Shown piece after piece: positions 7,569-59,730 of a stretch of DNA of 64,000 nucleotides. The notes beneath the pieces are model-generated. The model was given only the letters and a program-made list of their open reading frames with translations, was not told where the DNA came from and ran no database searches. Position 1 is the stretch's first letter. Every line of letters begins with the position of its first letter. Source of the stretch: a virus (taxonomy: Duplodnaviria > Heunggongvirae > Uroviricota > Caudoviricetes). A program made the translations under genes and the position numbers. The DNA lies in IMG/VR virus record IMGVR_UViG_3300045988_009603, one strand, 5' to 3'.

Positions 7569-7574
7569 TTTATT

Positions 7575-7662: not shown

Positions 7663-7671
7663 ATTTAAATT

Positions 7672-8071: not shown

Positions 8072-8078
8072 ATTAATT

Positions 8079-17362: not shown

Positions 17363-17924
17363 TGGTGTGATAGATATGAAAAAAGATAACTTAAAAGAAG
17401 TTGAAGGCAACTACCTAGTCCTTGACTGGAATGATATTCGGGAAGCACTATCCGAAGAAAACCTTGACATACTAAAGCAACTTATCTTCTCAGTACGTCA
17501 TACCAGAGGTATTGTAAACGGTAAAGAGCCACTTGAAGGAATCTTTGTAGAGAAGTCTTATCCGTTCTATGAAGACACTTTGCAGAAAGTTAAAATGCAC
17601 TTTAGACAGAAGAACCGTAAAGTGGTCACTATGGTATCTCTTGGTGGACAGAGCATGTCTGTGATGGAAGATATCAACCCTAAGAGACCGAGTAAAGGTG
17701 TTTGTATAAAAATCACAGGTCATGAAGAGTACATCTCAGTGGATGACTTTAGTGCATTCTGTAATGGTTCTGCTGTCTTTAATGGGTTCCACTATGATAT
17801 CCGAGTGTATCCAATCAAGGGAGATGATATCATGATGCAGATATTTGATAACAACAATGGATTTACTCATTTTTATCAGACAACTAAGTCATCACTGAAG
17901 ACAGTTCTGGAAACACTGATTTAA
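17331..17924 (+). CDS. hypothetical protein
   Basis: 197 aa ORF. Confidence 0.5.
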   Translation: MQSQITKFYDNGVIDMKKDNLKEVEGNYLVLDWNDIREALSEENLDILKQLIFSVRHTRGIVNGKEPLEGIFVEKSYPFYEDTLQKVKMHFRQKNRKVVTMVSLGGQSMSVMEDINPKRPSKGVCIKITGHEEYISVDDFSAFCNGSAVFNGFHYDIRVYPIKGDDIMMQIFDNNNGFTHFYQTTKSSLKTVLETLI

Positions 17925-17934
17925 AATATCTTAA

Positions 17935-17961
17935 GAGCCTCCTTAATTGGGGGCTTTTTAA
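17935..17961 (+). terminator. terminator-like hairpin at end of plus-strand block
   Basis: AGCCTCC/GGGGGCT stem followed by TTTTT. Confidence 0.5.
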
Positions 17962-17964
17962 TTT

Positions 17965-19525
17965 TTATAAAATTTCATCGGTTGTCCCAACCTCTGGGTC
18001 ACCATCATATGTGAATAAAATATCTACCCTTCTTAACAACCTTCTTAAGCTTACTCTCTATATAGTTATATAGTACTATATAGTATCTTAGTGTCTATCT
18101 AGTGGTCTTAATAGCCCATCTGTATAACCCTTCTAAACACTCTTCTAACAAGCCTTCTTAACAACCTATACAATCACCTTAACCATCCCTCTACACCCTC
18201 TTAGAAGCTCCTATACACCTCTTAATCTCTATGTCAGCTATGTTACCCTCTATAGATGTTCACTAGGTATTACTAAGCCTCTATATAGTCTGTTTTAACA
18301 AACTTAACAGGAATATCTTTACAGACCTTATCTCACAAGGTCTAACACGGTACTAACAAGGTATCTTATAAGCCTGTTTATGCCTGTATTTTTAAAAGAC
18401 TGTCTAGGTAATTATTCAGAATTTTAAAATTTTTATAAAATAGGGCTATCAAGTCATTTTTTAGGGTCTTTGAAGGAACTCAAAAATATCTGTAGAAGAT
18501 GTATATCTGCTTGGTAGCCCTTAACATCCCTGTAACATCCCCTTTGCAGAATTTTAAAATATCATTAACAATCTCTTAACAGTTGCTACATCTTCTTAAC
18601 GACTCTTCAAAGGTCTTAACAGTTTCTTAACAGAACTAACAAGGCTGTAACAGTTTCTTAACAGTTGATACATAGTCTTTACAGATGCTTAACAGATGAC
18701 TAACAAGAGCTAACAAGTTAATTTTTAAGAGTTATTTTGTAGGGATTGGTAACAATACCAATTAAGATAATTAACAAGTTCCTAACAAGTGTTTAATCTT
18801 TTTAACAAGCTATTAACATGGTCACTATCTCTTTTCTTATCGTTCCCTTTCCCTCTTAGTGATTCTTTAAATAGCCCTCTTAAAAGCTCTCTATAGCTTT
18901 TTGTAAGCTCTTTTAAGCCTCTTCCTAGTAATTACACCCCAACTATGTAGAAAGCTCTTTATAGGGCTTTACAGAAGCTTTAAAGGCTATGTCAAAGACT
19001 CTTACAAGGCTTTTACATGGTTTTAACAGAGATTTAACAAGGGGCTAACAAGTTGCTAACAAGTGTCTTAAAAGCATAACTATGTAGGATTTGTTAAGAA
19101 ATTGTTAAGAAAATGTTAAGGGGGCTAGCATTTACGTAACTTTATAGCCTCTTTTACGTAACTTTGAAGTAACTTCATAGCCCCTATAACATACTTTTAA
19201 AACACTAACAAGCCCTTTCTAGTAGTTCACAAGAGACTAACGAGATGGTAAAGCTTACACCCTTATAAGATTCTTTTAAGGCTCTGGGAAGCTTTATAAA
19301 GGGCTTTTAAGGGTGAGGTAATGCAATCCCTTAAGTTGGGTTGATAAGGCTGTTATAGAGCGTTACAGAGCGTTTAAGGGGTTGCCCTTCCCTTTCGGGT
19401 TATGGGCTTATATTTAAGTTGATTTGATAAAAGGCTATAGAGTAAGCTATAGAGTTATTGCTTTTAAGGTCTAGTAAGATTCTAGGAAGGAAAGGGAAAG
19501 GGTTTGTATAAGGATTGTATAAGAC
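17965..19525. repeat. ORF-free repeat-rich region: YTAACAR(G) iterons, 16 bp perfect palindrome, several direct repeats
   Basis: at least 25 copies of CTAACAAG/CTTAACAG-type heptamers on one strand, often 10-12 bp apart; TATATAGTACTATATA at about 18068; TTTACGTAACTTT x2 at about 19140. Confidence 0.7.
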
Positions 19526-19526
19526 G

Positions 19527-19552
19527 TAAAAAAGCCCCTATTCAGAGGGGCT
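19527..19552 (-). terminator. rho-independent terminator at end of minus-strand small-gene array
   Basis: minus-strand AGCCCCUCUGAAUAGGGGCU followed by U6. Confidence 0.6.
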
Positions 19553-19590
19553 GTAAAGGTATCTGGGGCTATTTAGCCCCGTTGCGTCGA

Positions 19591-19839
19591 TTAGTTGTAA
19601 CCTTGTTTGCTGTAGTACAGGGAGACAATCAAATCACCCCAATAATGGTAATGGTGTTCATCGTTTAATGCCTCTTTTACTGCATCTTTCCAGAAGTCAT
19701 CAGTAGGGTTATAATCTGGAATAACTTGCTTGATAACTGTCTTCACTAATGAAAAACACTCATCAGTCCCACCAATATCAAATTTAACGTCCAGAGTATA
19801 ACAGCCATAAGCATTGACAGTTGCGCGGATAGTTGCCAT
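19591..19839 (-). CDS. hypothetical small protein (array gene)
   Basis: 82 aa ORF preceded by conserved cassette and AGGAG SD. Confidence 0.5.
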   Translation of the reverse strand: MATIRATVNAYGCYTLDVKFDIGGTDECFSLVKTVIKQVIPDYNPTDDFWKDAVKEALNDEHHYHYWGDLIVSLYYSKQGYN

Positions 19840-26358: not shown

Positions 26359-27144
26359 TTAGTTCTTTGCGTCTAAGAAGGTAACTTCCGGTGAAGAGAA
26401 GACCGTCTCGATATCCTCATCAGTTCTTGCATAGATATATGTATCTGCATCACTACCAAACGTTACAGCTATCCTGTGATTGCTCTTCGACAGGTGGGTA
26501 ACTAGAGCGTTACTTAGAGACATCTTCTCAACCGGAGGGTTACTTTGATGTATCTTACCTTTTCTTCGTCTGAAGAGGGTAACTGCATCCTCTGTGAACG
26601 TTACTACACCTGCAAAGTATTCTGGTTCACAGTAGTTATTCCAACCTGAGCGTAACTTGTGGTACATCTCTCCTTCGTAGACATACAGATAAACATCTAC
26701 ACTCTTCATCACCTGATTAATGATAACTGTGACGGCTTGAGGGTCTAGCCCACCGATACCTGCACCAATCATAGGTAACCCAACTTTCTTCAACTGATTA
26801 ACTTCACAGTATCTGTTAAGCTGTTTCAAAGATGACTCTAAAGCACTGTATCTGGCATCTTTACCAGTCTTAAGCTGAGTGTAAAGATTAGCTATACGAC
26901 CTTGTTTTAAACGTGCTACAGAGAAATTACCTAGTAAATTTTCACAGGGTTTGTGACCTATACCACCTGCATACAGATAAACTTCTGTATCAGTCTCATA
27001 TGCTTTTGGGTAAAGTTTAGAAATCTTGTCAGCGATACCTGCACCCATTAAGTTCATACAGTTGCAACCGTGACCAATAATATCAAACTTACCTTTATCA
27101 AATGCGTCAAAGATATCACCTTTGATGATTTTTACAATACCCAT
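26359..27144 (-). CDS. macro-domain-like protein (putative ADP-ribose binding/processing)
   Basis: 261 aa; IKGDIF...DIIGHGCNCMNLMGAGIADKI...GLPMIGAGIGGL resembles macro domain N-x-N, glycine-rich and P-loop-like motifs. Confidence 0.5.
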   Translation of the reverse strand: MGIVKIIKGDIFDAFDKGKFDIIGHGCNCMNLMGAGIADKISKLYPKAYETDTEVYLYAGGIGHKPCENLLGNFSVARLKQGRIANLYTQLKTGKDARYSALESSLKQLNRYCEVNQLKKVGLPMIGAGIGGLDPQAVTVIINQVMKSVDVYLYVYEGEMYHKLRSGWNNYCEPEYFAGVVTFTEDAVTLFRRRKGKIHQSNPPVEKMSLSNALVTHLSKSNHRIAVTFGSDADTYIYARTDEDIETVFSSPEVTFLDAKN

Positions 27145-30497: not shown

Positions 30498-31607
30498 TTA
30501 GATTTCACGTTTACGTTGAGAAATGAGTTCACCAGCAGTACCAACGATGACATGCAAAGCTTCAGTCTTACCATCCCACGCTTTCAGCACTTTACGCTGA
30601 TTATCAACGATTGCTGCAACTTCATAACGGGATGAACGCATCTTCATATCGTTGTAATCAGTTGGAACAGATACAACATCTCGTGGATGGACACGAACCT
30701 TCAGGATTGTATCACCTGAGAAGCAACGAACATAATCCCAAGCACCAACATGAAGACCCTGAGAGCAAGTTACGTTACGGTTGTTATCAACCATCCAACG
30801 TGGCATTTCTACAATATTACCTAAATCATTAGGTACTTTATAGGTGTGGGAGTCAACCAACTTGCCTTCACGAGTAGAGACTTTCTTCCAACCAATGATG
30901 TAACCTTCTTCATCAATTTCAACATCAAGGTGAGATACGAATCCCCAAAGTTGTTCTACAGAATCTTTAGATGGGTTTTCCATCAGTTTTTCGAAGAACA
31001 TTACAAGTCGTTCAAAACCTTTATCACCAGTCTTCATCATGTGAAGAATACGGTCAACCAGAGTAGAACGCATCTCAACAGCACCGTAGAATAACTTGTC
31101 ACCTTTGATTGTGATAGCACCCTGAGTGAAGTTTTCGATAGACTTACGAATGTTCATCAGTTCAAAAGCTTTCTTGTACTCACCACCTACAACAGCCATT
31201 ACGATTTCTTTGTAGTTTGGATGGGTAGACTCAACGATTTCAGAATCTGCACCGAAAGTCATGATAACAGAATCGCCAGTAATCATATACTCAATCTGGT
31301 TACCATTCTGCATAGCTTCGTGTAGTTTATTTACTGGAGCTTCCTGTACAGCCTCTTTAACAACCTTTTCAACTGGTTTTCCAGCTTTCTTTTTAACTGA
31401 TTTAGCAACTTGCTTCAAAGTCTTCGTAGCTGGTTTAGAAGCTACCTTTTTCTTACCTTTTAAGGTTGCTTCATGACGCTCTACAGCACGACCAACTGAA
31501 CGGGTTGAAGTATTGAACTTCTGTGCAATAGCTGTTTTAGTCAGCTTACCTTCTTTCACCAGTTCGTAAATTTCTGCGTCAATCTGTGCTTTAGTTTTAA
31601 TAGTCAT
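30498..31607 (-). CDS. rIIB-like protein (by position next to rIIA-like gene)
   Basis: 369 aa ORF immediately downstream of GHKL-ATPase gene; no independent motif recognised. Confidence 0.35.
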   Translation of the reverse strand: MTIKTKAQIDAEIYELVKEGKLTKTAIAQKFNTSTRSVGRAVERHEATLKGKKKVASKPATKTLKQVAKSVKKKAGKPVEKVVKEAVQEAPVNKLHEAMQNGNQIEYMITGDSVIMTFGADSEIVESTHPNYKEIVMAVVGGEYKKAFELMNIRKSIENFTQGAITIKGDKLFYGAVEMRSTLVDRILHMMKTGDKGFERLVMFFEKLMENPSKDSVEQLWGFVSHLDVEIDEEGYIIGWKKVSTREGKLVDSHTYKVPNDLGNIVEMPRWMVDNNRNVTCSQGLHVGAWDYVRCFSGDTILKVRVHPRDVVSVPTDYNDMKMRSSRYEVAAIVDNQRKVLKAWDGKTEALHVIVGTAGELISQRKREI

Positions 31608-31686
31608 CTTATTACTCTCTCTTGTTAGTTAATAAATCATTTTGTAAGGCTATTCTAAGGGGCTTCAAAGCCCCTTGTCAAACACT

Positions 31687-34053
31687 TTAATCGTAAATTG
31701 TAGTCCCTTCTGGAACACACTTCACATCAAAGCCTAAGAATTTACTCACTTCAATGGGTGACACTTTATTCCAATCTAAATGAGAAAGCAAGAAGTTTTC
31801 TTGTTTTCTTTTTGAAAGATAGTTTGTCACCTTAATAATCATACGGTCACCAGCTTTCTTAATTTTCTTGTATAGCTTTGTATCGTTGTCAAGGCATTCT
31901 TTCAAAGTTTGCAACCGACTAATAGTGTAGGTGTATGCAAACGGTGCAGCAACGTATTGGATTTTACCAAACATTGCCTCAACAGCATCTTCATTACCTT
32001 CTAAGAAGATAGTTTTGTTTGTGTCTCGTGAATAGCAATAGCCACGAGAAATCTTCTTGTTATTGAACGTAAAGTTTCTGGCAATAATCCAACTGCTTGT
32101 AAGGTCTAGAACACCATTCATATAGATACGTGTCATATACCTGTTATGATTAATCCAGTGAACATCAGTTAAGCTGTCGTTCAAGAGTTTCTCATCTACT
32201 TCAATCCAGTCTTCTGGTATCTTTTTCCAATTTGCTTTTCGGAAAACATAGACTGTCTTTTCAATGACATTGGCAACTGACTTAGCTACATCTTCTGGAG
32301 ACGAGCAAAAACATTCACCATCAACAGTATCACCTACTGCCTTGATATAAAGTTGAGGCTCTTCAATTGTGTCTAAGTCTTCTGACACCTCTTTATAGGA
32401 AGCTACACCTTCTGCTGGAACAGCTTTCCAGAGTTTTACAACACCTCTTACAGCTTCTTTACGCTGATAATGATGTTCCTTATCAGACATCTTCACAATC
32501 TTTAACAAGCTTTTATCAAGTTTGTGCAGATTGATTAGGTCGTCTAACTCTTTTTCAGTCGAGAATACAAAGACAATACCATTATATCTGTGAAACAGAC
32601 TTGACTCACTGGCATAGTCTCGACATGCACCACGCAAGATTTGGTTGCGTCCTACAGTCTTCTCAGTACCATTTTTATTGCGACGGTCATTGATAACAAA
32701 CAAAAACTGTTCAATTTGGCTTTTGCGCATTGCGCCAAAGATATTGAACATACTTGCCTCTTGAGTGTAGGAAAGTGCTGTTGCACGAATCTTACTTTCT
32801 AAAGAGTTGAACTTAACATAAGCAACTGGATTATAAAGATAATCTACTTTAGGGATGTTGTTTCCGTTCCTATCAACCTTAATATTACCTTTACCATCAC
32901 GTTCATAAATAACTGAGCCGTCTTCTGCGTAGATAATTCCACGACGAATGTTTAGTAATTCTTCTTCCAGAGAATCAAGCTTAACACCACCCCACTCTAG
33001 CTTTGGACACACAGCATTAAACATCTCTCGTGAGTTCAAACGTAACTCAGCATAAGCCTGTGCAGCATCCATGAGTGTAGGTTGGCTATTAACTTTCTTG
33101 ATAACATCCTTTGTAATGGCTTCAGTTATCTTTTTAGTAGCCTCAATGATAACATTTTTTGTCGTGTCATTCATCTGTAATGCTTCACGAGAAGCTGCGA
33201 TAGCAACTGAACCAATAGGCATATAGATGTTTACAAGGTCTACGCTCCTACGGAAAAATTCTGGCAAGACTTTGAAGAAATCATCACCAAGTAATGCTTC
33301 CATGTTAACAGGGTATGCAATGTTACCCATCACCACATTAAACTCTGTCCTGTTACCACTAGAACGCCAACTTTGCTTATGAATCATAGCATCATAAACA
33401 CCTTCTTCACGGGCAATGACGTTCATATCTGCTAATACATCGTCATACTCGATATTGCTTTCTGGTTTTACAGCAAAGTATGAGTATACGTGACCAGCTT
33501 CTTCAAAGAATTTTGAGATACGATGGTCAGCAACTGCTACACGTACAGCTAAACCATTAGGTTCTTTTGTTGGATTGGTGGTCAGCTTAGTTACTTGAGG
33601 GATACCATTCTCAAGATAAACAGAGTACTTATTAACAACACCATCAACATAACTGGACACTGTGAATGACTGAGCAATTGCAAATGGGGATTTTGAGCCG
33701 ATACCCATTGCACCAATGTAGTCATTAGAGTCATTCTTCGTAGAAGCCCCGTAGTTTAGATACAAACTCATAACTTTATCATGAGTCAATCCAGTTCCAA
33801 AATCACGAACTTCAAAGTAAGGCTCAAAACGAGTAGGTAAATGCACATGGAACGGGATGTTCTCTTTTCCAGCTTCTTTCTGAGCATCCACTGCGTTACA
33901 TGACAGTTCACGAATAACTGCCCTTTCTTTAAAGGTGTATACACCAGAACTCAAAAGGCTGAACATTTCGGGTGTCATTGTAATCTGTGCTTGAGACGTC
34001 TCTAAAGAAGTTGAACTCTTAATCACTTCTGCGTGGTCATTTACCATGCGCAT
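31687..34053 (-). CDS. rIIA-like protein with N-terminal GHKL (HATPase_c) ATPase domain
   Basis: 788 aa; ELSCNAVDA, DFGTGL, GAMGIGSKS Bergerat-fold motifs. Confidence 0.55.
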   Translation of the reverse strand: MRMVNDHAEVIKSSTSLETSQAQITMTPEMFSLLSSGVYTFKERAVIRELSCNAVDAQKEAGKENIPFHVHLPTRFEPYFEVRDFGTGLTHDKVMSLYLNYGASTKNDSNDYIGAMGIGSKSPFAIAQSFTVSSYVDGVVNKYSVYLENGIPQVTKLTTNPTKEPNGLAVRVAVADHRISKFFEEAGHVYSYFAVKPESNIEYDDVLADMNVIAREEGVYDAMIHKQSWRSSGNRTEFNVVMGNIAYPVNMEALLGDDFFKVLPEFFRRSVDLVNIYMPIGSVAIAASREALQMNDTTKNVIIEATKKITEAITKDVIKKVNSQPTLMDAAQAYAELRLNSREMFNAVCPKLEWGGVKLDSLEEELLNIRRGIIYAEDGSVIYERDGKGNIKVDRNGNNIPKVDYLYNPVAYVKFNSLESKIRATALSYTQEASMFNIFGAMRKSQIEQFLFVINDRRNKNGTEKTVGRNQILRGACRDYASESSLFHRYNGIVFVFSTEKELDDLINLHKLDKSLLKIVKMSDKEHHYQRKEAVRGVVKLWKAVPAEGVASYKEVSEDLDTIEEPQLYIKAVGDTVDGECFCSSPEDVAKSVANVIEKTVYVFRKANWKKIPEDWIEVDEKLLNDSLTDVHWINHNRYMTRIYMNGVLDLTSSWIIARNFTFNNKKISRGYCYSRDTNKTIFLEGNEDAVEAMFGKIQYVAAPFAYTYTISRLQTLKECLDNDTKLYKKIKKAGDRMIIKVTNYLSKRKQENFLLSHLDWNKVSPIEVSKFLGFDVKCVPEGTTIYD

Positions 34054-34942: not shown

Positions 34943-34963
34943 AAAAAGGCTCCCGTAGGAGCC
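34943..34963 (-). terminator. rho-independent terminator
   Basis: minus-strand GGCUCC-UACG-GGAGCC followed by U5. Confidence 0.6.
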
Positions 34964-34978
34964 TCTTATCATATACTT

Positions 34979-36760
34979 TTAAAGCTGCTTGTCAATATTA
35001 TTTCGAATATCACCAAGAGATGTGTAACCGAACTGCTCAGAGTCACTAAAGACTAAACGTAAAGCACAAGCTGGATGTTCAAGCACATCTGCAAAGCTCT
35101 GGAATCCATAGCCATCTACAGCTTGCAGCTTATCACCATCCCACATAGGTGCTACACCACCAAAAGCAGACTTCTTAACACCACTATCTGTTTTAGGGTC
35201 TTTTGCAAGCATAATCTCTTTACCGCCAATGCTTGCAAGAGTTGCTTTGACAGCAAATGCAAAGGTGTCACGAGTCATGTACTGGTAAGTGTAAGAACCT
35301 ACACCAAACACTACGTTAGAGCTTGCAAAACCCATTTCATACAAACGCTTCAAGATTTCGTTTGCACGTTCCAACGTGATAGAGTCACCATAAATAAGTC
35401 CGATGTGCTCATCCAGTACTTTAAAACCTTTAGAGTTGATAGTTCCCCCAAAGATGTTATACAGTGTCTTGATAGCTCCATCAATCTCTGCTACAGGACG
35501 TGTTACAACGTTTGCAGAACCAACCATATAAGCGTTTTTCAACATCACTGTATCAGCAACTTCAAAGTCTTCTCTGTCAACAACCATTTCGTAGCCTTCT
35601 GACAGTAGCCACCCAGCAATACCATAGTTGATGTTTTCAAGCTTCATGTTCAGAACAGCATTCAACATTGTGTCGCTGGCTTCCAGCTTGCTTAGGTGTT
35701 CGTAATAAGATTTTTTAGCGCACTCTAAATGGATTGCTTTGTATCCTGTGACAATATGTACAGGGTCTCCAGAGTCAGGACGGATTACCAGTTTACCATC
35801 ACGTTCCATAATCTCTTTACGAAGTGCTGGTAAGATTTCTGATACAGTTCTCCAGAAATTATAAGTGTCTGAAACAACACTTGCAATACCAGTTGGGTAA
35901 GTTTCTGTTAAGAAACGACGGAAGGTTTGTAACTCACCTTTAAAGCGTCTTTCTTCTTCAACCAACTCGTTACCACCTTCCCAAGCAATGTTTGCACACA
36001 TTACAGAGTGTTCAGTGGCTGGTACAGAACCACCAATATCAGAGATTGGGTAAGATTGTCCGTAGATGCGTTTAGCTGTATATACAGCAGGGAAGCTATC
36101 AGTCCCTTTAAAGCTGGTTAAGTGGCCTACAGCGTTAAATGCGTCATCGGTAAAGCCAGACATACCACGCATAGCAAAGTCATGGCACTGATAAGGTAAA
36201 TGCAAGGTATTGTCGCAAGTAAGGTCAGCCCACTTCTTACAGATACGTTTGTAGTGCAATGCAATAGTTGCAATGGTACAAGCCTTCCAAATCTCAGCAG
36301 AGAAAGCATCTTCAAGATACCCCGCTACCCAATGGAAACCTGAAACAGTGTTCTGGAAGATAATCATTGGTACACGCATAGGGACAACTGTGCCTTCTTC
36401 TACAGCGTATACTTCAACTGGTAGATAACCTAAGTCGTGAAGTGCTTCCCAATGTTCTCGACCAATAGCATCTTTACCCAGAACACCGTTCATGACTTCT
36501 AAGATTTCGTCAATTGCTTCTTTTTTGTCACGTTCAAAGAAAGTGGCGTTCCAATGGTCTATCAAGTAATCTTTAACGAAACGTTGAATACCAAAAGCCA
36601 CTACACCGTCAATTGCTAAAGGACTGTTAAACCATTTATCACTACGTGGTGTCAGGTTCAACATAAGATATTGCGTAGCATCTGGATACTGATATACATG
36701 TGATGCCTTGTAAGCATCTGCATTAAGACCTGCTGGTACTGCATAAAGTGATTTAGTCAT
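34979..36760 (-). CDS. nicotinamide phosphoribosyltransferase family protein (NadV/Nampt-like; possibly Namat of NARP1)
   Basis: 593 aa; N-terminal TDAYKASHVYQYP matches Nampt signature region. Confidence 0.75.
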   Translation of the reverse strand: MTKSLYAVPAGLNADAYKASHVYQYPDATQYLMLNLTPRSDKWFNSPLAIDGVVAFGIQRFVKDYLIDHWNATFFERDKKEAIDEILEVMNGVLGKDAIGREHWEALHDLGYLPVEVYAVEEGTVVPMRVPMIIFQNTVSGFHWVAGYLEDAFSAEIWKACTIATIALHYKRICKKWADLTCDNTLHLPYQCHDFAMRGMSGFTDDAFNAVGHLTSFKGTDSFPAVYTAKRIYGQSYPISDIGGSVPATEHSVMCANIAWEGGNELVEEERRFKGELQTFRRFLTETYPTGIASVVSDTYNFWRTVSEILPALRKEIMERDGKLVIRPDSGDPVHIVTGYKAIHLECAKKSYYEHLSKLEASDTMLNAVLNMKLENINYGIAGWLLSEGYEMVVDREDFEVADTVMLKNAYMVGSANVVTRPVAEIDGAIKTLYNIFGGTINSKGFKVLDEHIGLIYGDSITLERANEILKRLYEMGFASSNVVFGVGSYTYQYMTRDTFAFAVKATLASIGGKEIMLAKDPKTDSGVKKSAFGGVAPMWDGDKLQAVDGYGFQSFADVLEHPACALRLVFSDSEQFGYTSLGDIRNNIDKQL

Positions 36761-36806
36761 CTTTTAATCTCTCTCAAAATGGGGCTTGAAAGCCCCCTAT
36801 AAAGTT

Positions 36807-37706
36807 TTAATCAAGGTTTGCTACAGTAACTTGACCATAATGTGTTAAACCACGGTCTTTAGCTTCCCCTAAAGAGTTTGTAGTGTAGATGTGGTCAATA
36901 CCATTGTCAAGAAGGTTTTCAACCCCTTTAGAGAAGATACCATGTGTTACATAGAGTTCCACACGTTTTGCACCTGCTTCACGAAGATGTTTAGCTGCTT
37001 CTATGAAGGTTCGACCGCCATCACAGATGTCGTCGAGAATCATAACAGTTTTATCGGTCAAATCAACATCATCAAGGATTCGCATACCAGTAATTTCACC
37101 AGTTTTGAGGTTACGTACTTTAGACATTGTGATGTATGGCTTATCCACCTCTTTAGCAGTTTCTGCAATCTTCTTAGAAGCACCTGCATCTGGGGCTACT
37201 AAGTAATCAACCAGTGGGTCATTTGCATAGTGGACTGCAATTTCATTTTGAGGAATACTTTGGAAGCAGTTAAACAGGTTATCTGGTACATAACTGTGAG
37301 GGTCAACTGCACAGACTGCACCAAACCCCATTGCATTGACCTGTTTAGCAAAAACCTTTAAAGCTGCTGCATCACCTTTAAACATGTGACGGTCATATCG
37401 TGCATTTGGTAAGTAGTAAAAAATGACAGTCTTTAAGGCATAGTCATGAGGGACTAAATCATCAATTGCTTCTTTAGCAAGTGCCACAGCAAACAATGTG
37501 TCCTTGTCATAACCTTTCACAATAATAATCACATTGTTGATAGACGATGCTGCATAAGCAGTAAAATCAACAAGCTCTTGTGAAAAATGTCCACCAATCT
37601 CACCAGAAGGGAATTGGATGATGTTAAACTCTTCTTCATGAGTTCCTTTAGTCGGTGAATGAACTGTAACACGGATAGATGTTTTCATAGTTTCTCTCTT
37701 AGTCAA
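36807..37706 (-). CDS. ribose-phosphate pyrophosphokinase family protein (Prs-like; possibly ADPR-PP synthetase Adps of NARP1)
   Basis: 299 aa; VAPDAGASKK and PRPP-binding VMILDDICDGGRT motifs. Confidence 0.7.
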   Translation of the reverse strand: MTKRETMKTSIRVTVHSPTKGTHEEEFNIIQFPSGEIGGHFSQELVDFTAYAASSINNVIIIVKGYDKDTLFAVALAKEAIDDLVPHDYALKTVIFYYLPNARYDRHMFKGDAAALKVFAKQVNAMGFGAVCAVDPHSYVPDNLFNCFQSIPQNEIAVHYANDPLVDYLVAPDAGASKKIAETAKEVDKPYITMSKVRNLKTGEITGMRILDDVDLTDKTVMILDDICDGGRTFIEAAKHLREAGAKRVELYVTHGIFSKGVENLLDNGIDHIYTTNSLGEAKDRGLTHYGQVTVANLD

Positions 37707-37977
37707 AAGTTACGTTTGTTACTGCCATTGCAGATTTGCATTTTGCAGGGTCTACAACGTGATAAAGTACACTACAGTTACCTGTGCTGTCTGGTACAGG
37801 CTTTACCCATTGATGCTTTATAGTTGGCTCTCCTAAGTCTTTGTAAGAACCATCTGTAAAGTTGTTTACCATCTCAAGTGCAATTGGTTCTGGAACATGA
37901 CCACGTATCATGTACATCTCACAACCATTACCACCTTCACTGACTAATGGTAAAATCTCCCACTTTTCTTTAGCCAT
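37699..37977 (-). CDS. hypothetical protein
   Basis: 92 aa ORF. Confidence 0.45.
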   Translation of the reverse strand: MAKEKWEILPLVSEGGNGCEMYMIRGHVPEPIALEMVNNFTDGSYKDLGEPTIKHQWVKPVPDSTGNCSVLYHVVDPAKCKSAMAVTNVTFD

Positions 37978-38485
37978 TGTAAGTTGCCCTATAAACTGTC
38001 TCGAACTTCAACAGGAGAGATATTGCCAAATCTGTATAGTTGTTGTCAAGCACATCTGGCATATTATTTTTGATATATTTCTCTTGCTCTTCATAGGTCA
38101 TCTTAGGGGTGCTTAAAAGATTATCCCCTTGCTTCTGGTTATCAAGTTTAGTCTGGATAAACCAGTTTGCACAGTGGTGCTCACCACCCTTTGTAACAGG
38201 TTTGTGGTGGCCTAATGTGAAGGATTGACTACCTGTATATCTGCAAAGTTTATTGAGTACTGTAATGGTGTTCTTCACAACAAAACATTCATACAGGTTG
38301 TCTATGGTGTAGTATGGGTAATATCGGAATAATACTCTTTCACGAGTACTCTCACGATTCCAGAGAATCATGTGATTGGAGTTGGAAGGGTCATATTGGT
38401 GGGAGTCAATGAACTCTTGACGTTCCTCAAAGCTGAGCCTTAACACTGACATTGCAGCCGAACGTTTCAGGTTTGACAGGTACAT
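37970..38485 (-). CDS. hypothetical protein, possible HNH-type nuclease
   Basis: GHHKPVTKGGEHHCANW...KQGDN motif; weak. Confidence 0.35.
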   Translation of the reverse strand: MYLSNLKRSAAMSVLRLSFEERQEFIDSHQYDPSNSNHMILWNRESTRERVLFRYYPYYTIDNLYECFVVKNTITVLNKLCRYTGSQSFTLGHHKPVTKGGEHHCANWFIQTKLDNQKQGDNLLSTPKMTYEEQEKYIKNNMPDVLDNNYTDLAISLLLKFETVYRATYNG

Positions 38486-38537
38486 ATTGTCTCCAAAATA
38501 AAAAAGGGAACCTTTACAGTTCCCTAATCATAGACTC

Positions 38538-38849
38538 TTACTGAACTAATTTCAATACTTTGAAGAAACCTTCTTCGCCAATTGCATCATAGACCTTTTC
38601 AGTTGGCTTGATAAGGTTGTTCAAGCAGATTATTTTCTTACGTTTCTTATCATAAGAGAGTTTAAGCTGCTTCAGCTCTTTATCATCTTCAGGGTGCTCA
38701 TTGTACATCTTTACAGCCTCTTTGAAGCTAATGTAACCGCCACCAAGAGTAAGGAAACCTGTGCCACAATAATGTGAATTGTGTTTATCAGCCATAAACT
38801 GACACAGAACAGAAATCTGAATTTTACGGGTGTTATAAATCTTTTCCAT
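38538..38849 (-). CDS. hypothetical protein
   Basis: 103 aa ORF. Confidence 0.45.
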   Translation of the reverse strand: MEKIYNTRKIQISVLCQFMADKHNSHYCGTGFLTLGGGYISFKEAVKMYNEHPEDDKELKQLKLSYDKKRKKIICLNNLIKPTEKVYDAIGEEGFFKVLKLVQ

Positions 38850-40939: not shown

Positions 40940-41548
40940 TTATTTTTTCTTACAATTGTCAAAATGATATCGAGTCATGTTACCAGCACCACCAGTCATA
41001 CCACAATGAGGGCAAGTTTTCTTTTTCTTTGGCTTTTTTCCGGCTTCTGACATCTTCTTCCTTGTTTCTATAGACCTTTTACAACCTTTTGATTTTGTAT
41101 TGCCTATTTGAGATTCTCCTAACCGTCTTCGATGTTCTTCAGTGAAAACCCTACCTTTATTCACAATAGATAGAGCTTTCGAGTTCAAAGCCCTTACCTT
41201 TTCATAGTCTCTGGATGATATTTTCCTATCTAGGCCATCATGGGCTAACCTGTTCCATGCAAACCATAACTTATGATTGTTTGGATACATCTTAACCAGT
41301 AATTTATGAGCTATATAATGCTCTCTAGGTGTAAGTAAAGCAATATTATCTCCACTAATTTTATCGCCACCTAGACATACTGGTGTGATATGGTGTCTTT
41401 CATAACCCTTACCTTGACATTTGTAGTATGTAAGAGGCACACCCCTTTCAGAATGTGCCTTCTTAATAATTGCATTATATATTAGTTCGTAATTCATTTG
41501 TATGCTACATAGAAACCCTATCCTTAATTTCTGCCATCTTAGCGTCAT
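40940..41548 (-). CDS. HNH homing endonuclease with NUMOD-like repeats
   Basis: ERHHITPVCLGGDKISGDNIALLTPREHYIAH; repeated basic K/R helix motifs; overlaps 3' end of nrdD. Confidence 0.7.
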   Translation of the reverse strand: MTLRWQKLRIGFLCSIQMNYELIYNAIIKKAHSERGVPLTYYKCQGKGYERHHITPVCLGGDKISGDNIALLTPREHYIAHKLLVKMYPNNHKLWFAWNRLAHDGLDRKISSRDYEKVRALNSKALSIVNKGRVFTEEHRRRLGESQIGNTKSKGCKRSIETRKKMSEAGKKPKKKKTCPHCGMTGGAGNMTRYHFDNCKKK

Positions 41549-42473
41549 TCATTCGAGACTGACCTTTAATTTTTGTGAATGACAAGTACCCGCACACCCT
41601 GTTAATCACAGAGATGTCATGTGAATGGCAAACCTCACATTCTTCAACATCAGCCTTTGGTCTGTTACCACAATGTTCACAGATTGCTAAGTCAAAGTTA
41701 AGTCCCTGATAGAAGCCTTTCAACATCCCTCTTGTAATACAACTTTTAAGTGCTGGTAAGTTTTCTGGGTTAGCTACCCTTACATACTGGATTCTGCCAC
41801 CTCTACAAATATGGAAGAATGGTTCTTCTAAGTCCTGCTTCTCAAATGGTGAGATATCTGCTGCAACATTCATATGAAAACTGTTTGTAAAGTATTCCTT
41901 ATCAGAAACACCTTTGATAACGCCAAACATATCTCTGAACTGTTTTAGTTGAGTCCCACAAAGTGATTCTGCTGGAGTACCATATACCGCATATAAGAAG
42001 CCATCTTCATTCTTAAACTCTTCAGTTTTCATGTTAATGTATGCCAGAACATCGTATGCAAAACTACAGCTTCCAACTTCATGAAGTCGTTTACCCTCAG
42101 CAAGAACAGATAACTCATCAAGCGCAGTAACACCAAAAGAAGCTGTGAAAGACTTCACAATATCCCAGCCAACCTTGTCAGTAGGTTTCTTAGTCCCTTT
42201 GTACAGACCACCTTGTGTGAATGCAAGAGGGTTAGAGCTTGCTGGCATATTAGCAATCATTTCGTAGCGTTTCTTGTGGAAGCTGCGAATCATCTCTAGG
42301 TACTTATCAAGCTCTTTCCAGAAATCTAAGCCATTCTCTTTAGAATACTGGTAAATCATTGGTAAGTTCAAAGATACAGCACCAATGTTAGCACGACCTA
42401 CATAAAACTCTTCACCATCTTCGTTATGGTATGGTGATAAAAACGCTCTACACTTGTTGTTCAGGTAAGTTCG
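41505..42473 (-). CDS. nrdD: anaerobic ribonucleotide reductase, C-terminal exon region
   Basis: glycyl-radical motif RVCGY, Zn-ribbon CEHCGN...CEVC; upstream in-frame region contains NIGAVSLNLP. Confidence 0.75.
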   Translation of the reverse strand, partial: RTYLNNKCRAFLSPYHNEDGEEFYVGRANIGAVSLNLPMIYQYSKENGLDFWKELDKYLEMIRSFHKKRYEMIANMPASSNPLAFTQGGLYKGTKKPTDKVGWDIVKSFTASFGVTALDELSVLAEGKRLHEVGSCSFAYDVLAYINMKTEEFKNEDGFLYAVYGTPAESLCGTQLKQFRDMFGVIKGVSDKEYFTNSFHMNVAADISPFEKQDLEEPFFHICRGGRIQYVRVANPENLPALKSCITRGMLKGFYQGLNFDLAICEHCGNRPKADVEECEVCHSHDISVINRVCGYLSFTKIKGQSRMNDAKMAEIKDRVSM

Positions 42474-43215
42474 CTACGCTTACCCCGCTTTATTCAAGCT
42501 GCTTACTGTCACCAGTAAGTCCAGACTATATCTTCTACTTATTTCTAAGTAGCGTACCATTTCGAGTCGCTTGACCCTACACCGCTACATTCATCACGGT
42601 TAGTCGTTTGGCATTTAGATGTACTCAAATTCATGTTCAAAGTTATTATATTCTTTTACACCCTTCAGTATTGAAGAGATAGTCTTGCGATTATACCCAA
42701 GTATCTTGGATAACTCTCGTATCGAGTTCGCAACAATAACTTCTTTTGTTACTTTGTGTGTAGCCTTCACAGCATATGAACGCTTACAAAACTTGTAGCA
42801 ACCATTCTCATAACCTTCTTTAACATTCTCAGAATGAGTTCCCCATTCTAAGTTAGAAGCATGGTTATTCAGTTTGTTGTCATCTTTGTGTTTTACAATT
42901 GGAAGATTGTTCGGGTTAGGTACATATTTCTCAGCAACTAACCTATGAACATACATGTCACGATTCTTCTTACCGTAAAACCTCACTTTCATATACCCAG
43001 TGTTGGATTTCCACTGCTTAAGTTCTACACCATTTTTCCTAAAGACTCTTCCATCTTCAGTAACATGATAATTTGGCATGTAATACTCCTATGTTATATA
43101 GTTTCTTACATCGTACATCATTTAGCACAGGATTGTCTACATCTGTAGAGTTTCCCTGTTTAGGCACGTTTTAGATGAGCTATAGAGCTTGTTAACCCAT
43201 CGGTGAAATTACCTT
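42460..43215 (-). other. group I intron-like insertion in nrdD (boundaries approximate)
   Basis: separates N- and C-terminal NrdD ORFs; contains HNH ORF; 3' region has P7-like GACUA...UAGUCUGG and a P9-like hairpin. Confidence 0.5.
42615..43079 (-). CDS. intron-encoded HNH homing endonuclease
   Basis: 154 aa; HKDDNKLNNHASNLEWGTHSEN. Confidence 0.75.
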   Translation of the reverse strand: MPNYHVTEDGRVFRKNGVELKQWKSNTGYMKVRFYGKKNRDMYVHRLVAEKYVPNPNNLPIVKHKDDNKLNNHASNLEWGTHSENVKEGYENGCYKFCKRSYAVKATHKVTKEVIVANSIRELSKILGYNRKTISSILKGVKEYNNFEHEFEYI

Positions 43216-44391
43216 GCCAGAACGCTCAAAAGCCTCTGCTACAGCACCATGACCAGATACACTTAAGAAATCTGGATACATAGCTTTAGAGCAACACTCT
43301 ATAGCTTTTTCAAACAACCTTGCTTGGCATACATCAAGCTTATGTCTTGTCTCTTCATAGATATACACAAGTTTAGGGAACACCACAGGTTTTTTGCTTT
43401 TACCTTGCCCATTCATTCTTACATTAAGAATTGTATTAGCAATCATAAACTGAAGACGGTTATCTTCATTGTGCATATCTGGTTCCAGCAAACCAAATGT
43501 CAGAGTAGTAAATGCAAAATCACCGCGACTGCAAGGAACAGTGTTAAGTTTCATTTCAAGAGATTGGAAACCCTGTGTTAACTCATTCTGTAGTTGTTCC
43601 ATTACGTAATTATAGTGTTGCTCTTTAGGGATTCCGTACTCTTCAGCTTTCTCTGAATGGTACACTAAAGACTTCTTAGCATACGGTACAAGCACCTTAT
43701 CAATCTCTGCTAAAGTAAATCCACCAAATTGCTGTGCAGTTGCTGAAAGAACTACATCACCAATAACCTGTAAGGCTGACAGCACAGACTTTGGTTCACA
43801 GTATTCAATGCCAGACATTTCAAAGCCACCTTTTAGTACTTTACCAATGTCAAACAGGCAACAGTTGATACCACCAAAAATTAGGTCTCTTAAGTCATGG
43901 ATGTAGATAAATCCTTTTTCAATGGCTTCAAGTTCCTCTGGTGTTAAATGGTACTGTTTAAAGATTTCTTTAGTCAGGTAACCACGAATAATTGAACCTT
44001 TTGTAGAAATTAAACTGCTGTCAAAGTTAGCATTTTCACGGTCACCTAAGAAGAGTGTGTCTTTAGTCTTCTGGTAAAGCTCATCCCAATTTTGAGCAAC
44101 CTCTTTACGGTAATTTCTATATGTTGAGTAAGACTCATAAATCTCGTGATTTACTTCTGCCAAAGCACCCTCAACAATGCTGTGAATATCGTTTACTGAG
44201 ATGAGCAAATTATTCTGCTTAGTGGACTTTACCAGAATCCTCATAAATGCTGATTCAAGAGCTTGGGTAACATCTGGTGGCAGTTCTTTATATCCAACCC
44301 TGTTAGCTGACTTAGTTACTGCTGCTAAAACTTTTTTGATATCCGGTTCTTCAAGTGAGCCATTCTTTTTAATAATTTGTACTTTGTTCAT
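43192..44391 (-). CDS. nrdD: anaerobic ribonucleotide reductase, N-terminal exon region (3' end reads into intron)
   Basis: ATP-cone-like N-terminus VQIIKKNGSLEEPDIKKVLAAV; 399 aa ORF. Confidence 0.7.
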   Translation of the reverse strand: MNKVQIIKKNGSLEEPDIKKVLAAVTKSANRVGYKELPPDVTQALESAFMRILVKSTKQNNLLISVNDIHSIVEGALAEVNHEIYESYSTYRNYRKEVAQNWDELYQKTKDTLFLGDRENANFDSSLISTKGSIIRGYLTKEIFKQYHLTPEELEAIEKGFIYIHDLRDLIFGGINCCLFDIGKVLKGGFEMSGIEYCEPKSVLSALQVIGDVVLSATAQQFGGFTLAEIDKVLVPYAKKSLVYHSEKAEEYGIPKEQHYNYVMEQLQNELTQGFQSLEMKLNTVPCSRGDFAFTTLTFGLLEPDMHNEDNRLQFMIANTILNVRMNGQGKSKKPVVFPKLVYIYEETRHKLDVCQARLFEKAIECCSKAMYPDFLSVSGHGAVAEAFERSGKVISPMG

Positions 44392-57530: not shown

Positions 57531-57587
57531 TGCTTTTTATAATTTTTTGCAGTAATGTATGAGGTTAATGAATTAGAGGGAGTACAA

Positions 57588-59730
57588 ATGGAAAACGTAG
57601 ATTTTAAAAACTTACACTTAGTTGGTGATACAGAAACTGATGGTTTACTCCTTGAGTTCACTAAAGTCCACGTCATGGCTTTCGCAGACTATAAATCTGA
57701 CGATGAAGAGCCACCTGTATGGGTCTTTACAGATGAGCCTATCCTCGGTCACAAGTATACCAAGTACATTAAAGGTGGTTTGCGTGAAGGTATTGAGTTT
57801 GCGTTAAAGGCAAAACGGCTTTGCATCCATAATGGTCTGGGGTATGACTGGTGGGTTTTCAATCACATTGCACCTGATTTGTGGAACTTTGATAATCCAA
57901 AGTGTAAGCCGTGGAGTAATTTCTTTCAGGATTCTCTTATCCAGTCTCGTGTTCAGTGGATGGATAGACCAACTCCAAAAGGCTATAAAGGTGCTCATGG
58001 CTTGGCAGCATGGGGTGCTCGTGTTGGTGTACGTAAACCAGAGATTGAACATTGGGGTGTGTGGAATGCAGAAATCTTCACTCGTGTTGTAGAGGATATC
58101 CGTATTAACGCCAAAACTAAACGAGCACTGGATAATGAATATCTCAAGTTAAAGAAGTGTGGTATAGACACTTATGAAACCTATATGCGAGCTAAAGAGA
58201 CATCTTTCTGGATGAGTCAACAAGCTATTAATGGTTGGAAAGCTGATAAGGAGCTTATGGAGTTCCATGTAAAGGAACTTGACAAGTTGACTAATGAGCT
58301 TGCTTCAGAAGTTGAACCACACCTTCCACCAACTATTAAGACCAAAGGTAAAGTCACTGGAGAAGAGTTTGCAAAAGCTTGGAATGAGTATGTTGAAGCG
58401 TTTGGTCATGCAGATGGACTGAAAAGAATTACCAAGTACCCTAAGACAAAGTATCGTCAGCAGGTACGTAACGGTGAGATGCAGACATATGAAATCAAGC
58501 CATTTGGTAAGCCAACTACAAAGATTTTTAACATTGAAAAGCGGAATTGCTATACACCAACCAACACTGTAACTGGCGAAGAGTACAAAGAAGGTTTTGT
58601 AGCAATGAAGGATGCTCGTGCAATTTGCAATGAGTTGAATGCAAAGATTGGTAAGAAATGCAAAGACTGGAAGCCAGTAAAAACAGTCAAAACTGTGAAG
58701 TACTATAACAGTCACGTTGTTAACCACTTTGAACTTGAGTCAAGTCGCTACACAGGATTGATTGATGCACCATATACACCAATTGAGTTTGAAGTTTCTC
58801 GTATGACTCAGGTAGCAGTTGTTAAAGACTACTTGAAATCAGTTGGTTGGATTCCAGATGACTGGAACTACAAGAAAGACTCAGACGGTCGCCCTGTCAA
58901 AGTTTGTCGTTTCAAAGACAATAAAAAGATGATTACAAAGCATCCTAAGTGGCAGGAGATGGTTGAGCGTTGTGGATTGAGCTATGTTGAACATGAAGGT
59001 GTACAGTACATTGAGCATAACTGGTCTGTGAAGAAGTACACAGATTTGCTTGAACCTTGTCTGATTAGGACTTCACCAAAACTTACTGAATCATCTTATG
59101 ATACGATTGAAGGTGAGCTTGGACAGAAGATTGCTAAGTACTACACTTTGATGCACCGACGCAGAACTATTGAGAACTCAAAGGATGATGAAAAAGGTTG
59201 GTTGAACCAGATTCGTCCTGATGGTCGCCTTAGTGCTGGCGCAATGGTGTTTGGTACTTCAACTGGACGTATGACACAATATGGTATTGTAAACGTACCG
59301 TCTGGCGCTGCTGTCTATGGAGCACCCATGAGGGAAGTTTGGACTTGTGAAGAGGGTACTAATATTGTTTCAGCCGACATGAATAGCGCCCAACTTGTGC
59401 TACTGTGTAACTTTATGGGTGATAAAGATTTCACTAAAGCGGTGACAGAGGGTAAAGAAGAGGTTGAGTTTGTTAAACAAGATGATGGTAGATACTATTG
59501 CAAACATTTTGACCAGTATCTAAACCCAGCTATTGACAAGTATTTACATTATGATTCGGAAAATGACTTATACGTGGTGTACTCAGGGACTGATGCACAT
59601 ACTTTAAATAGTATCTACTTCAGTCTTAATAAAGAGGAAGACATCTTGACGTGTCGAGCTACTCAGGATACAAATCTTCTTCAAGAAATTAGTAAAGGTC
59701 GTAAGAAAGCCAAAAATGGCATTTATGCGT
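57588..59730 (+). CDS. DNA polymerase I family (family A), exon 1: 3'-5' exonuclease and N-terminal polymerase region
   Basis: Exo I VGDTETDG; motif A-like SADMNSAQLVLL; first half of motif B RKKAKNGIYA. Confidence 0.8.

Follow-up and report, generated by a model that had tools for sequence, protein, structure and literature searches.

Results

Gene organization of the adps-namat locus

The window, a stretch of 64,000 nucleotides of viral DNA analysed at its full length, carries on its minus strand two co-oriented genes separated by a spacer of 46 nt (36761..36806). The upstream gene, adps (36807..37688), encodes a Prs-like protein of 293 amino acids (counted from the ATG), a putative ADPR-pyrophosphate synthetase (Adps), and the downstream gene, namat (34979..36760), a Nampt-like protein of 593 amino acids, a putative nicotinamide ADPR-transferase (Namat). 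A previous description made from the letters alone (the sequence-only reading) had reported two such genes 46 nt apart with a terminator at their end, and both ORFs, the spacer and the terminator were located. It had also let the Prs-like ORF run over 36807..37706. This is the longest ORF there (299 amino acids, TTG start at 37706), but the ATG at 37688 is the likelier start: the protein read from it begins with MKT as does the 293-amino-acid product of bas63_0079, AAGAGAGAA lies 5' of this ATG, and residues encoded 5' of it are not conserved between phages. Both PRPP-synthetase motifs named in that description are found in the Prs-like protein, VAPDAGASKK at amino acids 164–173 and VMILDDICDGGRT at amino acids 215–227. 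The N-terminal Nampt signature is likewise present in the Nampt-like protein, but it reads ADAYKASHVYQYP and not TDAYK..., one letter having been misread.

An intrinsic terminator (34944..34967, minus strand) with a 10-bp stem, five GC pairs and a T-run follows right after the namat stop codon and closes the unit. Its folding energy is −16.6 kcal/mol (z = −3.7 relative to shuffled sequences), and its sequence is identical in the phages Bas63 and adrianh. The number of terminator-like sites across the region equals the shuffled expectation, and the call therefore rests on position, stem strength and conservation. The spacer between the two genes contains a conserved GC hairpin, GGGGCTTTCAAGCCCC followed by ATTTT (36781..36796, minus strand), with a centroid fold of −11.4 kcal/mol (z = −2.1). 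Its stem is kept in Bas63 and adrianh, while the loop of Bas63 differs. Because its T-run is too short, this hairpin was not scored as a terminator by the scan; it is possibly an attenuator or an RNA-stability element.

Two small ORFs on the same strand, encoding 92 (37699..37977) and 171 amino acids (37970..38485), lie upstream of adps. They share 8 nt and stop 10 nt short of the adps ATG, and they are probably co-transcribed with adps. The 171-amino-acid protein is 98% identical to the product of bas63_0077, which was reported to counter retron Ec67. A domain scan detected neither a Macro nor an RyR domain in the two proteins, and we regard both ORFs as genomic context outside the NAD+ pathway. 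Further upstream, a terminator-like hairpin (38505..38525, minus strand; centroid −11.5 kcal/mol), whose position is conserved in Bas63 and adrianh, probably delimits the transcription unit at its 5' end, and a σ70-like promoter match (38555..38527, minus strand) is found near it. An Rfam scan yielded tRNAs as the only matches.

Phage lineage and synteny with Bas63

The window is part of the genome of a Felixounavirus (Felix O1-type phage) and spans about 64 of its 88 kb. A 2.9-kb block comprising the locus was matched by 258 phage records (95.7–96.4% nucleotide identity for the best of them), and about 250 sequenced phages have it at 80–96% identity. Judged by sequence and gene order, adps and namat are syntenic orthologs of the neighbouring genes 79 and 80 of Escherichia phage Bas63 (JohannRWettstein; MZ501086): NrdG is followed by homologs of genes 77 to 80 and these by rIIA, as in Bas63. 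The two phages have in common the genus, the genomic position, the gene lengths (293 and 593 amino acids), the 45–46-nt spacer with the same hairpin, and the terminator.

Namat is identical to the bas63_0080 product at 575 of 593 positions (97%), and the clamp residues as well as both Namat insertions described below are common to window and Bas63. Adps aligns with the bas63_0079 product over its full length (293/293 amino acids) with 230 of 293 residues identical (78%). The N-terminal third of Adps, by contrast, represents another allele than that of Bas63, with 61% identity over amino acids 1–90. At the nucleotide level, identity to Bas63 is about 60–65% over 37700..37400, yet 99% immediately upstream. 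The N-terminus of Felixounavirus Adps occurs in two sharply distinct allele classes, and the window carries the commoner one: among sequenced relatives, 157 records match it with at least 80% and 97 with 60–80% identity. A reading weaker than that of a split pathway discussed below is that these classes may have arisen under selection from a host factor which senses or inhibits Adps.

Adps groups with phage enzymes

The Prs-like protein matches TIGR01251 (E = 1.7e-34) and the Pribosyltran domain (E = 1.8e-11). Of the models searched, it passes only the broad subfamily model TIGR01251, with 119.2 bits at a cut-off of 113, and fails all Prs equivalog models (42–105 bits vs cut-offs of 296–536), the best of which is NF002095 with 104.6 bits at a cut-off of 296. 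In BLASTP comparisons with Adps proteins that are validated or of a validated type, it scores 119 bits with Adps of phage Chazly21 and 100 bits with Adps of Bacillus phage SPbetaL1, as compared with 60 bits for Prs of E. coli. By these two measures, BLASTP bits and equivalog cut-offs, the protein appears to belong with phage Adps and apart from cellular Prs. Its fold, its catalytic lysine, its RxDR motif and its PRPP-type loop (DDICDGGRT) are also those of E. coli Prs (b1207), but identity is 29% over 195 amino acids. The catalytic residue K190 aligns with K162 of SPbetaL1 and K192 of Gary and sits in an invariant K-x-R-N/D-x-x-T-G-E/D-I block.

No structure of an Adps was present among the PDB entries searched or found in the literature, nor did we find a published description of residues that recognize the ADP moiety of ADPR in Adps. 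Since no Adps structure was found, the comparison of residues for ADPR with those for ribose-5-phosphate concerns Namat.

Specificity residues of Namat

In Pfam, the Nampt-like protein matches NAPRTase (E = 6e-35) and also NAMPT_N, and in NCBIfam it matches NF006629 (E = 3e-141). Its best matches in the PDB are 9w5w and 9w5x (phmmer, E = 4e-128), which are identical in sequence to the SPbetaL1 Namat gene. They are followed by 9ke8 (1e-104) and by the Nampt proteins of Xanthomonas campestris (Xcc; 2e-51) and human (about 1e-41). True Nampt structures thus match at E-values at least 75 orders of magnitude weaker than the Namat match, although fold, catalytic core, catalytic histidine and the RPDSGD motif of human and X. 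campestris Nampt are common to the window protein.

A published comparison gives the sequence features by which Namat can be told from Nampt, and reports the clamp motif to be absent from Nampt (PMC12774641). All of these features were found in the window protein. Its SCH motif GSYTYQYMTRD (G488–D498) fits the signature GSX-φ-X-φ-X-φ-TRD, and its SCL loop, P38-R-S-D-K42-W43, is the same as in Bas63. The SCL is described as providing a residue that stacks on adenine, with R, K or Y in third place and, if this is K or Y, stacking by the fourth residue (PMC12774641); by this criterion, K42-W43 is the predicted adenine-stacking element of the window protein. The residues of the Nampt-like catalytic core, which comprises the catalytic histidine, Arg and Asp of the RPDSGD motif and an Asp/Tyr/Phe pocket for nicotinamide, align with residues of the SPbetaL1 enzyme (H251, R327, D329, D15, Y17, F195, R198 and D221 in the window protein), and all NAD+ contacts in the crystal structure of the latter are conserved or conservatively replaced. 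Two contacts differ (S190 to A196 and A362 to S460), and at both of them Bas63 is identical to the window. The comparison of structure, HMMs and active sites between Namat and Nampt that had been put forward as a check thus favours Namat by clamp, NAD+ contacts and PDB ranking.

The NARP1 enzymes of SPbetaL1 (Adps, WIT26982; Namat, WIT26983; PDB 9w5w/9w5x) resemble those of the window in the two-gene order, the catalytic lysine (K162, corresponding to K190), the catalytic histidine (H245, corresponding to H251) and the SCH motif. They are, however, only 47% (Namat) and 33–35% (Adps, the one such enzyme characterized in vitro) identical to the window proteins, and the SCL of SPbetaL1 Namat uses R40 where that of the window protein uses K42-W43. 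SPbetaL1 Namat also lacks two insertions of the window protein, one of 15 amino acids (amino acids 258–272) and one of approximately 77–85 amino acids (amino acids 341–427). The larger insertion is lineage-specific: within the phage collection, it turned up in 254 records of the Felixounavirus type and in no others.

An unlinked gene for a Macro-domain protein

All other ORFs of the window with at least 60 amino acids were scanned for NAD+ genes as concatenated pseudo-proteins, and only a Macro-domain gene emerged. It lies at 26359..27144, on the same strand as the pair, about 7.8 kb and about 14 genes downstream, and encodes a Poa1p-like protein of 261 amino acids (Pfam Macro, E = 1e-7), a candidate accessory factor. 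Eleven published Adpp sequences associated with NARP1 were combined into an HMM, with which the protein aligns end to end at 109 bits (E = 1e-33), and its residues H25 and N28 align with H24 and N27, which were mutated in Adpp of Gary. As this HMM gives 104 bits also for a Tk.4-type Macro protein from Tequatrovirus Bas43, a T4-like phage, the match was dropped as a sign of a specific link to NARP1.

Bas63 has a homolog of this gene, bas63_0095, with 97% conservation and the annotation 'putative phosphatase'; nothing was found on gene 95 of Bas63 in the PhageMaP preprint. The protein has an additional C-terminal domain of about 100 amino acids (160–261), for which the 'phosphatase' family phrog_335 was the sole match and a PDB search remained empty even at an E-value of 10. 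Neither a Macro-domain Adpp nor an RyR-domain RyDEP is encoded by the four nearest neighbours of the operon.

Discussion

Our analysis indicates that the adps-namat pair very probably represents NARP1 (Adps plus Namat). The arrangement corresponds to the operon definition of Osterman et al., by which genes of the Adps and Namat clades are found in close proximity. What was computed for the window pair comprises orthology, synteny, catalytic and specificity residues, and the finding that the window holds no NARP2 partner. The claim of the sequence-only reading that the genes encode NARP1 rather than classical salvage thus agrees with the orthology to genes 79 and 80 of Bas63, with the Namat determinants and with the grouping of Adps. 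NARP1 was discovered in these very genes of Bas63 (bioRxiv 10.1101/2024.02.11.579819); its occurrence here is hence already known, Felixounavirus being the prototype lineage of the pathway.

The functional data come from orthologs. The chemistry was demonstrated with the SPbetaL1 enzymes, ADPR-pyrophosphate (ADPR-PP) was seen only when NARP1 genes were present (bioRxiv 10.1101/2024.02.11.579819), and single deletion of gene 79 or 80 of Bas63 lowered the efficiency of plating on a Sir2-HerA strain by factors of 1e4 to 1e6, which was rescued by complementation; in a different study of Bas63 the loss was about 20-fold (bioRxiv 10.1101/2024.02.11.579819). From sequence relationships we infer that the window proteins behave like their SPbetaL1 and Bas63 orthologs, slightly less firmly so for Adps, since window and Bas63 differ in the allele of its N-terminal third. 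The pathway would become relevant when an effector of the SIR2, TIR or SEFIR type splits NAD+ into ADP-ribose and nicotinamide. Adps (36807..37688) would transfer pyrophosphate from ATP onto ADP-ribose to yield ADPR-PP, and Namat (34979..36760) would join ADPR-PP with nicotinamide directly to NAD+, with release of pyrophosphate. Rebuilding NAD+ in this way would neither pass through NMN nor depend on NadR or PncC of the host. Since it is rebuilt from its cleavage products, the pathway would cancel the consequence of immunity and not the immune protein itself. Among the NAD-depleting defences on which the pair had been claimed to act, CBASS was named too firmly: the source paper considers this effect only likely (bioRxiv 10.1101/2024.02.11.579819).

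It is tempting to ask whether the Macro-domain protein extends this pathway. In NARP1-AP of the Vibrio phages Gary and Chazly21, whose Namat and Adps are homologous to those of the window (Adps with 38% identity and 119 bits), a Macro-domain Adpp is encoded within two genes of NARP1. The window phage, too, has a Macro protein of the Poa1p-like kind in which both key residues are present, but its gene, the sole Macro gene found, lies outside the operon, 7.8 kb away, and is fused to a C-terminal domain. In a split version of NARP1-AP, this protein would remove the phosphate from ADPR-1''-phosphate, which aRES (antiphage RES-domain NAD+ phosphorylase) produces, and thus supply ADPR to Adps. The Poa1p/Tk.4-like domain matching end to end with 109 bits, the conserved H25 and N28, and the 97% conservation of the gene in Bas63 are compatible with such a role. 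Moreover, the published survey covered only two genes around NARP1, and its list contains no Escherichia or Salmonella phage. Against it stand the equal score of the Tk.4-type protein, the distance of about 14 genes, and the extra domain of about 100 amino acids that has no known relative. In addition, 2854 phage records (999 from Escherichia phages) contain Macro homologs and 2016 (189 from Escherichia phages) contain Namat/Nampt homologs, and most Macro-bearing coliphages therefore lack NARP1. We consider the split arrangement a doubtful, though not far-fetched, extension of the two-gene pathway.

Classical salvage, in which a true Prs makes PRPP, a true Nampt/NadV makes NMN and host NadR or PncC completes NAD+, is the reading implied by the names of the Pfam, NCBIfam and PHROG families and by almost all gene labels in the 258 phage records matched. 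Namat retains the catalytic core of Nampt and, in vitro, can make NMN from PRPP (PMC12774641). However, Adps of SPbetaL1 does not function as a Prs (bioRxiv 10.1101/2024.02.11.579819), the window Adps reaches no Prs equivalog threshold, and the window Namat contains the Namat-specific adenine clamp. Taking these points together, we regard salvage of the classical type as very unlikely.

A pathway of the NARP2 type, which also restores NAD+ during infection but does so from PRPP with a true Nampt-family enzyme and an Nmnat (NadV and NatV of Vibrio phage KVP40), can practically be dismissed: although about 20% of the Namat/Nampt homologs of phages fall into this second clade (bioRxiv 10.1101/2024.02.11.579819), the window protein carries the adenine clamp and has 97% identity to the Namat of a NARP1 pair, its partner gene 46 nt upstream is adps, neither the ORFs next to the pair nor any window ORF of at least 60 amino acids outside 34–39 kb showed an Nmnat, cytidylyltransferase-like, NUDIX, NadR, PnuC or RyR domain, and no Nmnat is among the annotated features of Bas63 that were inspected, which span about 72 of 87 kb.

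For NAD+ biology as such, the NARP1 assignment adds nothing new, the pathway being published and the lineage its prototype. The practical gain lies in the annotation of Felixounavirus records, among them those of Felix O1-type phages that serve in typing and biocontrol. With few exceptions, the roughly 250 matches listed bear the labels Prs and NadV/nicotinate phosphoribosyltransferase or leave the genes unnamed, and the NCBIfam equivalog model itself would name Namat 'nicotinate phosphoribosyltransferase'. Reading the pair as Adps and Namat predicts infection of hosts that carry SIR2-HerA, DSR, type I Thoeris or SEFIR. The Macro gene, the dimorphism of the Adps N-terminus and the Namat insertion could help to refine the known spread of the extended pathway. 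If the split form of NARP1-AP were true, surveys of two-gene neighbourhoods would under-count the extended pathway, and this lineage would resist aRES despite a NARP1 operon that looks as if it consisted of two genes.

Identity of the adps-namat pair

The ORF calls bore out two minus-strand genes at the positions proposed by a sequence-only reading of this DNA, separated by a 46-nt spacer (36761..36806), and the profile family matches of both products are far beyond chance. The Nampt-like gene namat (nicotinamide ADPR-transferase) occupies 34979..36760 and encodes 593 aa. In its longest reading, the Prs-like gene adps (ADPR-PP synthetase) extends over 36807..37706 from a TTG codon (299 aa). 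Its start is most likely the ATG at 37688, giving 293 aa, because the MKT start is shared with the 293-aa bas63_0079 of Escherichia phage JohannRWettstein (Bas63, MZ501086), a AAGAGAGAA stretch precedes this codon, and the residues before it differ between related phages. Both PRPP-synthetase motifs noted earlier are present in the adps product (VAPDAGASKK, aa 164-173; VMILDDICDGGRT, aa 215-227), whereas the Nampt N-terminal motif had been misspelled: it reads ADAYKASHVYQYP, not TDAYK.... The terminator said to close the pair was recovered on the minus strand after the namat stop (34967..34944; 10-bp stem, T-run, dG -16.6 kcal/mol, z -3.7), with the same sequence in two related phages.

A 2.9-kb block carrying the pair has matches in 258 phage records, all but a few of them Felix O1-type phages of Escherichia, Salmonella, Shigella and Citrobacter; 243 of the 258 cover at least 80% of its length, and the best are 95.7-96.4% identical. 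NARP1, the pathway in which Adps and Namat rebuild NAD+ from ADPR and nicotinamide, was discovered in Bas63 genes 79-80, whose loss sensitised the phage to SIR2-HerA; ADPR-pyrophosphate was seen only when these genes and the defence were present together (10.1101/2024.02.11.579819). With the SPbetaL1 enzymes the same study found conversion of ADPR and ATP to ADPR-PP and of ADPR-PP and nicotinamide to NAD+, and the Prs-like enzyme lacked Prs-type activity. In an independent knockout screen, deletion of g79 or g80 cut plating on Sir2-HerA cells 1e4-1e6, and complementation restored it (10.1101/2024.10.10.617714). Window Namat is identical to bas63_0080 at 575 of 593 positions (97%) and window Adps to bas63_0079 at 230 of 293 (78%). 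Judged by sequence and gene order, the window pair and Bas63 genes 79-80 are syntenic orthologs, and we infer that the pair is NARP1, here in the very phage lineage of its original discovery. The earlier proposal of NARP1 rather than classical salvage is thus supported by this orthology and synteny as well as by the Namat clamp residues described below.

Classical salvage, in which the two products would be a Prs and a Nampt, is contradicted by these clamp residues and by the independence of the Bas63 ortholog from host NadR and PncC, even though Namat has been shown in vitro to retain some PRPP-dependent NMN synthesis. NARP2 (Nampt plus Nmnat) needs an Nmnat, and Pfam detected no Nmnat, NUDIX, NadR, PnuC or RyR domain in the flanking ORFs or in any of the remaining window ORFs of 60 aa or more.

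Residues distinguishing Namat and Adps from their relatives

Namat and Nampt have a common catalytic core, to which Namat adds a two-part adenine "selectivity clamp". One part is the helix motif GS-X-phi-X-phi-X-phi-TRD, in which X is aromatic; the other is a variable loop with R, K or Y in third position and, in the case of K or Y, a fourth residue that stacks on adenine (PMC12774641). The SPbetaL1 Namat numbering of that paper was confirmed on the fetched sequence before the proteins were aligned. Window Namat carries the helix motif as G488-S-Y-T-Y-Q-Y-M-T-R-D498 and the loop as P-R-S-D-K42-W43, the same as in Bas63. All NAD+-contacting residues of SPbetaL1 align with an identical or conservative residue in the window protein: D13 with D15, Y15 with Y17, F189 with F195, S190 with A196, R192 with R198, D215 with D221, A242 with A248, H245 with H251, R306 with R327, D308 with D329, G360, D361 and A362 with G458, D459 and S460, F392 with Y490, Y396 with Y494, and T398, R399 and D400 with T496, R497 and D498. 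The comparison with Namat and Nampt suggested by the sequence-only reading comes out on the side of Namat: the clamp residues are present, and in the PDB 9w5w/9w5x, both SPbetaL1 Namat, rank first (E 4e-128), ahead of Xanthomonas Nampt (2e-51) and human Nampt (about 1e-41).

Unlike SPbetaL1 Namat, the window and Bas63 proteins carry insertions of 15 aa and approximately 77-85 aa, located in the window at aa 258-272 (35945..35989, minus) and aa 341-427 (35480..35740, minus). The larger one goes unmentioned in the structural paper (PMC12774641), has no Pfam match and was found only in 254 Felixounavirus-type records, whereas Namat/Nampt homologs are present in about 2000 phage records.

In the alignment window Adps keeps the catalytic lysine as K190, whose equivalents K162 of SPbetaL1 and K192 of phage Gary have been targeted by mutation. 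The surrounding block K-x-R-N/D-x-x-T-G-E/D-I is common to Adps proteins and absent from E. coli Prs. BLASTP gave 119 bits with Adps of Vibrio phage Chazly21, a relative of Gary, 100 with SPbetaL1 Adps and 60 with E. coli Prs. The protein just exceeds the cut-off of the broad NCBIfam ribP_PPkin subfamily model (119 vs 113), as against 42-105 bits with the Prs equivalog models, whose cut-offs are 296-536. The PDB contains no Adps, only distant Prs relatives matching the window protein (best E 7e-18), and we found no published Adps structure in the literature.

A sharp mosaic boundary lies at the adps start codon, the divergent segment being the 5' third of the gene (37290..37690). Immediately before the start codon the nucleotide sequence is 99% identical to Bas63; the value falls to about 60-65% along the first 300 nt and then rises to about 90%. 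At the protein level, aa 1-90 are 61% and aa 181-293 are 96.5% identical. The 254 Felixounavirus records show a bimodal distribution in this segment, 157 being at least 80% and 97 being 60-80% identical to the window, with a gap between 89.5% and about 75% in the phage collection. The N-terminal domain of Adps thus exists in two allele classes. Bas63 and Felix O1 belong to the minority class, so that the Adps validated by experiment, that of Bas63, differs from window Adps in its N-terminal allele. Separately, the first half of phrog_12872 (PHROG, 547 positions) matches Adps and the second half Namat, a pattern that suggests fused or truncated Adps-Namat proteins in some phages.

Genomic context of the pair

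A conserved GC hairpin lies in the adps-namat spacer (36796..36781, minus). Two closely packed small ORFs (171 and 92 aa) adjoin adps, and a terminator-like hairpin precedes both (38525..38505, minus); the transcription unit probably comprises four genes. At two minus-strand sites, 34995..34944 and 38555..38505, a good match to a sigma70-like promoter (TTGACA-16-TATGAT and TTGAAA-17-TATGAT) stands directly before a terminator hairpin. Both resemble the promoter-plus-stem-loop cassettes described for T4-type phages. In Escherichia phage adrianh the upstream hairpin is the reverse complement of the window version.

The gene order NrdG, small ORFs, pair, three small ORFs, rIIA, rIIB is common to the window, adrianh and Bas63. 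The 171-aa ORF directly upstream of the operon (37970..38485, minus) shares 98% identity with Bas63 gp77, for which activity against retron Ec67 is reported. The preprint labels this protein GIY-YIG, but its sequence contains an HNH-like motif (HHKPVTKGGEHHCANW) and weakly matches HNH in PHROG. Directly downstream lie homologs of rIIA (788 aa) and rIIB (369 aa) (30498..34053, minus), whose Bas63 counterparts g84 and g85 reportedly act against QatABCD. The pair therefore sits within an anti-defence-rich stretch (genes 77-85).

Accessory genes known for NARP1 encode Adpp, a Macro-domain phosphatase (NARP1-AP), and RyDEP, a glycosidase with an RyR domain; a domain scan of the flanking genes placed neither within nor adjoining the operon. 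A minus-strand gene 7.8 kb away (26359..27144) has a product of 261 aa that consists of an N-terminal Macro domain (aa 1-157, Pfam E 1e-7) resembling OARD1/TARG1 and yeast Poa1p (Poa1p/Tk.4-like) and a C-terminal domain of about 100 aa without known relative. Its Bas63 homolog, at 97% identity, is bas63_0095, which bears the annotation "putative phosphatase". The antiphage RES-domain defence aRES makes ADPR-1''-phosphate, which NARP1 cannot use, and the Poa1p-like Adpp of some NARP1 operons restores the pathway; that survey covered genes within two of NARP1 and included no Escherichia or Salmonella phage (Osterman et al. 2026). Against an HMM built from 11 Adpp sequences of that study, the window protein matches end to end (109 bits, E 1e-33), and the mutated residues H24 and N27 are kept as H25 and N28. 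Caution is nevertheless required because a Tk.4-type control from a T4-like phage scores 104 bits and Macro homologs are far more widespread in coliphages (999 Escherichia phage records vs 189 with Namat/Nampt homologs). This protein may act as an unlinked Adpp, although we consider this less likely than not.

Other features of the window

A cluster of 26 tRNA genes (2795..8155, minus) is directly preceded upstream by a gene for a 471-aa DUF2828/DUF7788 protein (8320..9735), presumably the counterpart of Bas63 g130 (Ro60-like). Bas63 g130 is reported to counter the ppl defence system. Where plus- and minus-strand genes switch, 1.7 kb without an ORF (17924..19591) contains dense TTAACA(G/A) repeats, many phased at 11 nt, together with several inverted repeats, and so resembles an iteron-type origin or regulatory region. 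Endonuclease ORFs interrupt two essential genes, those for NrdD (41508..44391) and DNA polymerase (57573..61088). In NrdD the interruption lies at aa ~400 and spans about 730 bp with an HNH_3 ORF (42615..43079), as in Bas63; in the polymerase it lies at aa ~725-762 and spans about 700-760 bp with an Endonuclease VII-like ORF (59784..60323), whereas the Bas63 polymerase is contiguous.

The NARP1 pair itself is already known and is common to about 250 sequenced relatives. The remaining value of the present analysis lies in its re-annotation and in three side observations: the Macro gene, the N-terminal alleles of Adps and the Namat insertion.
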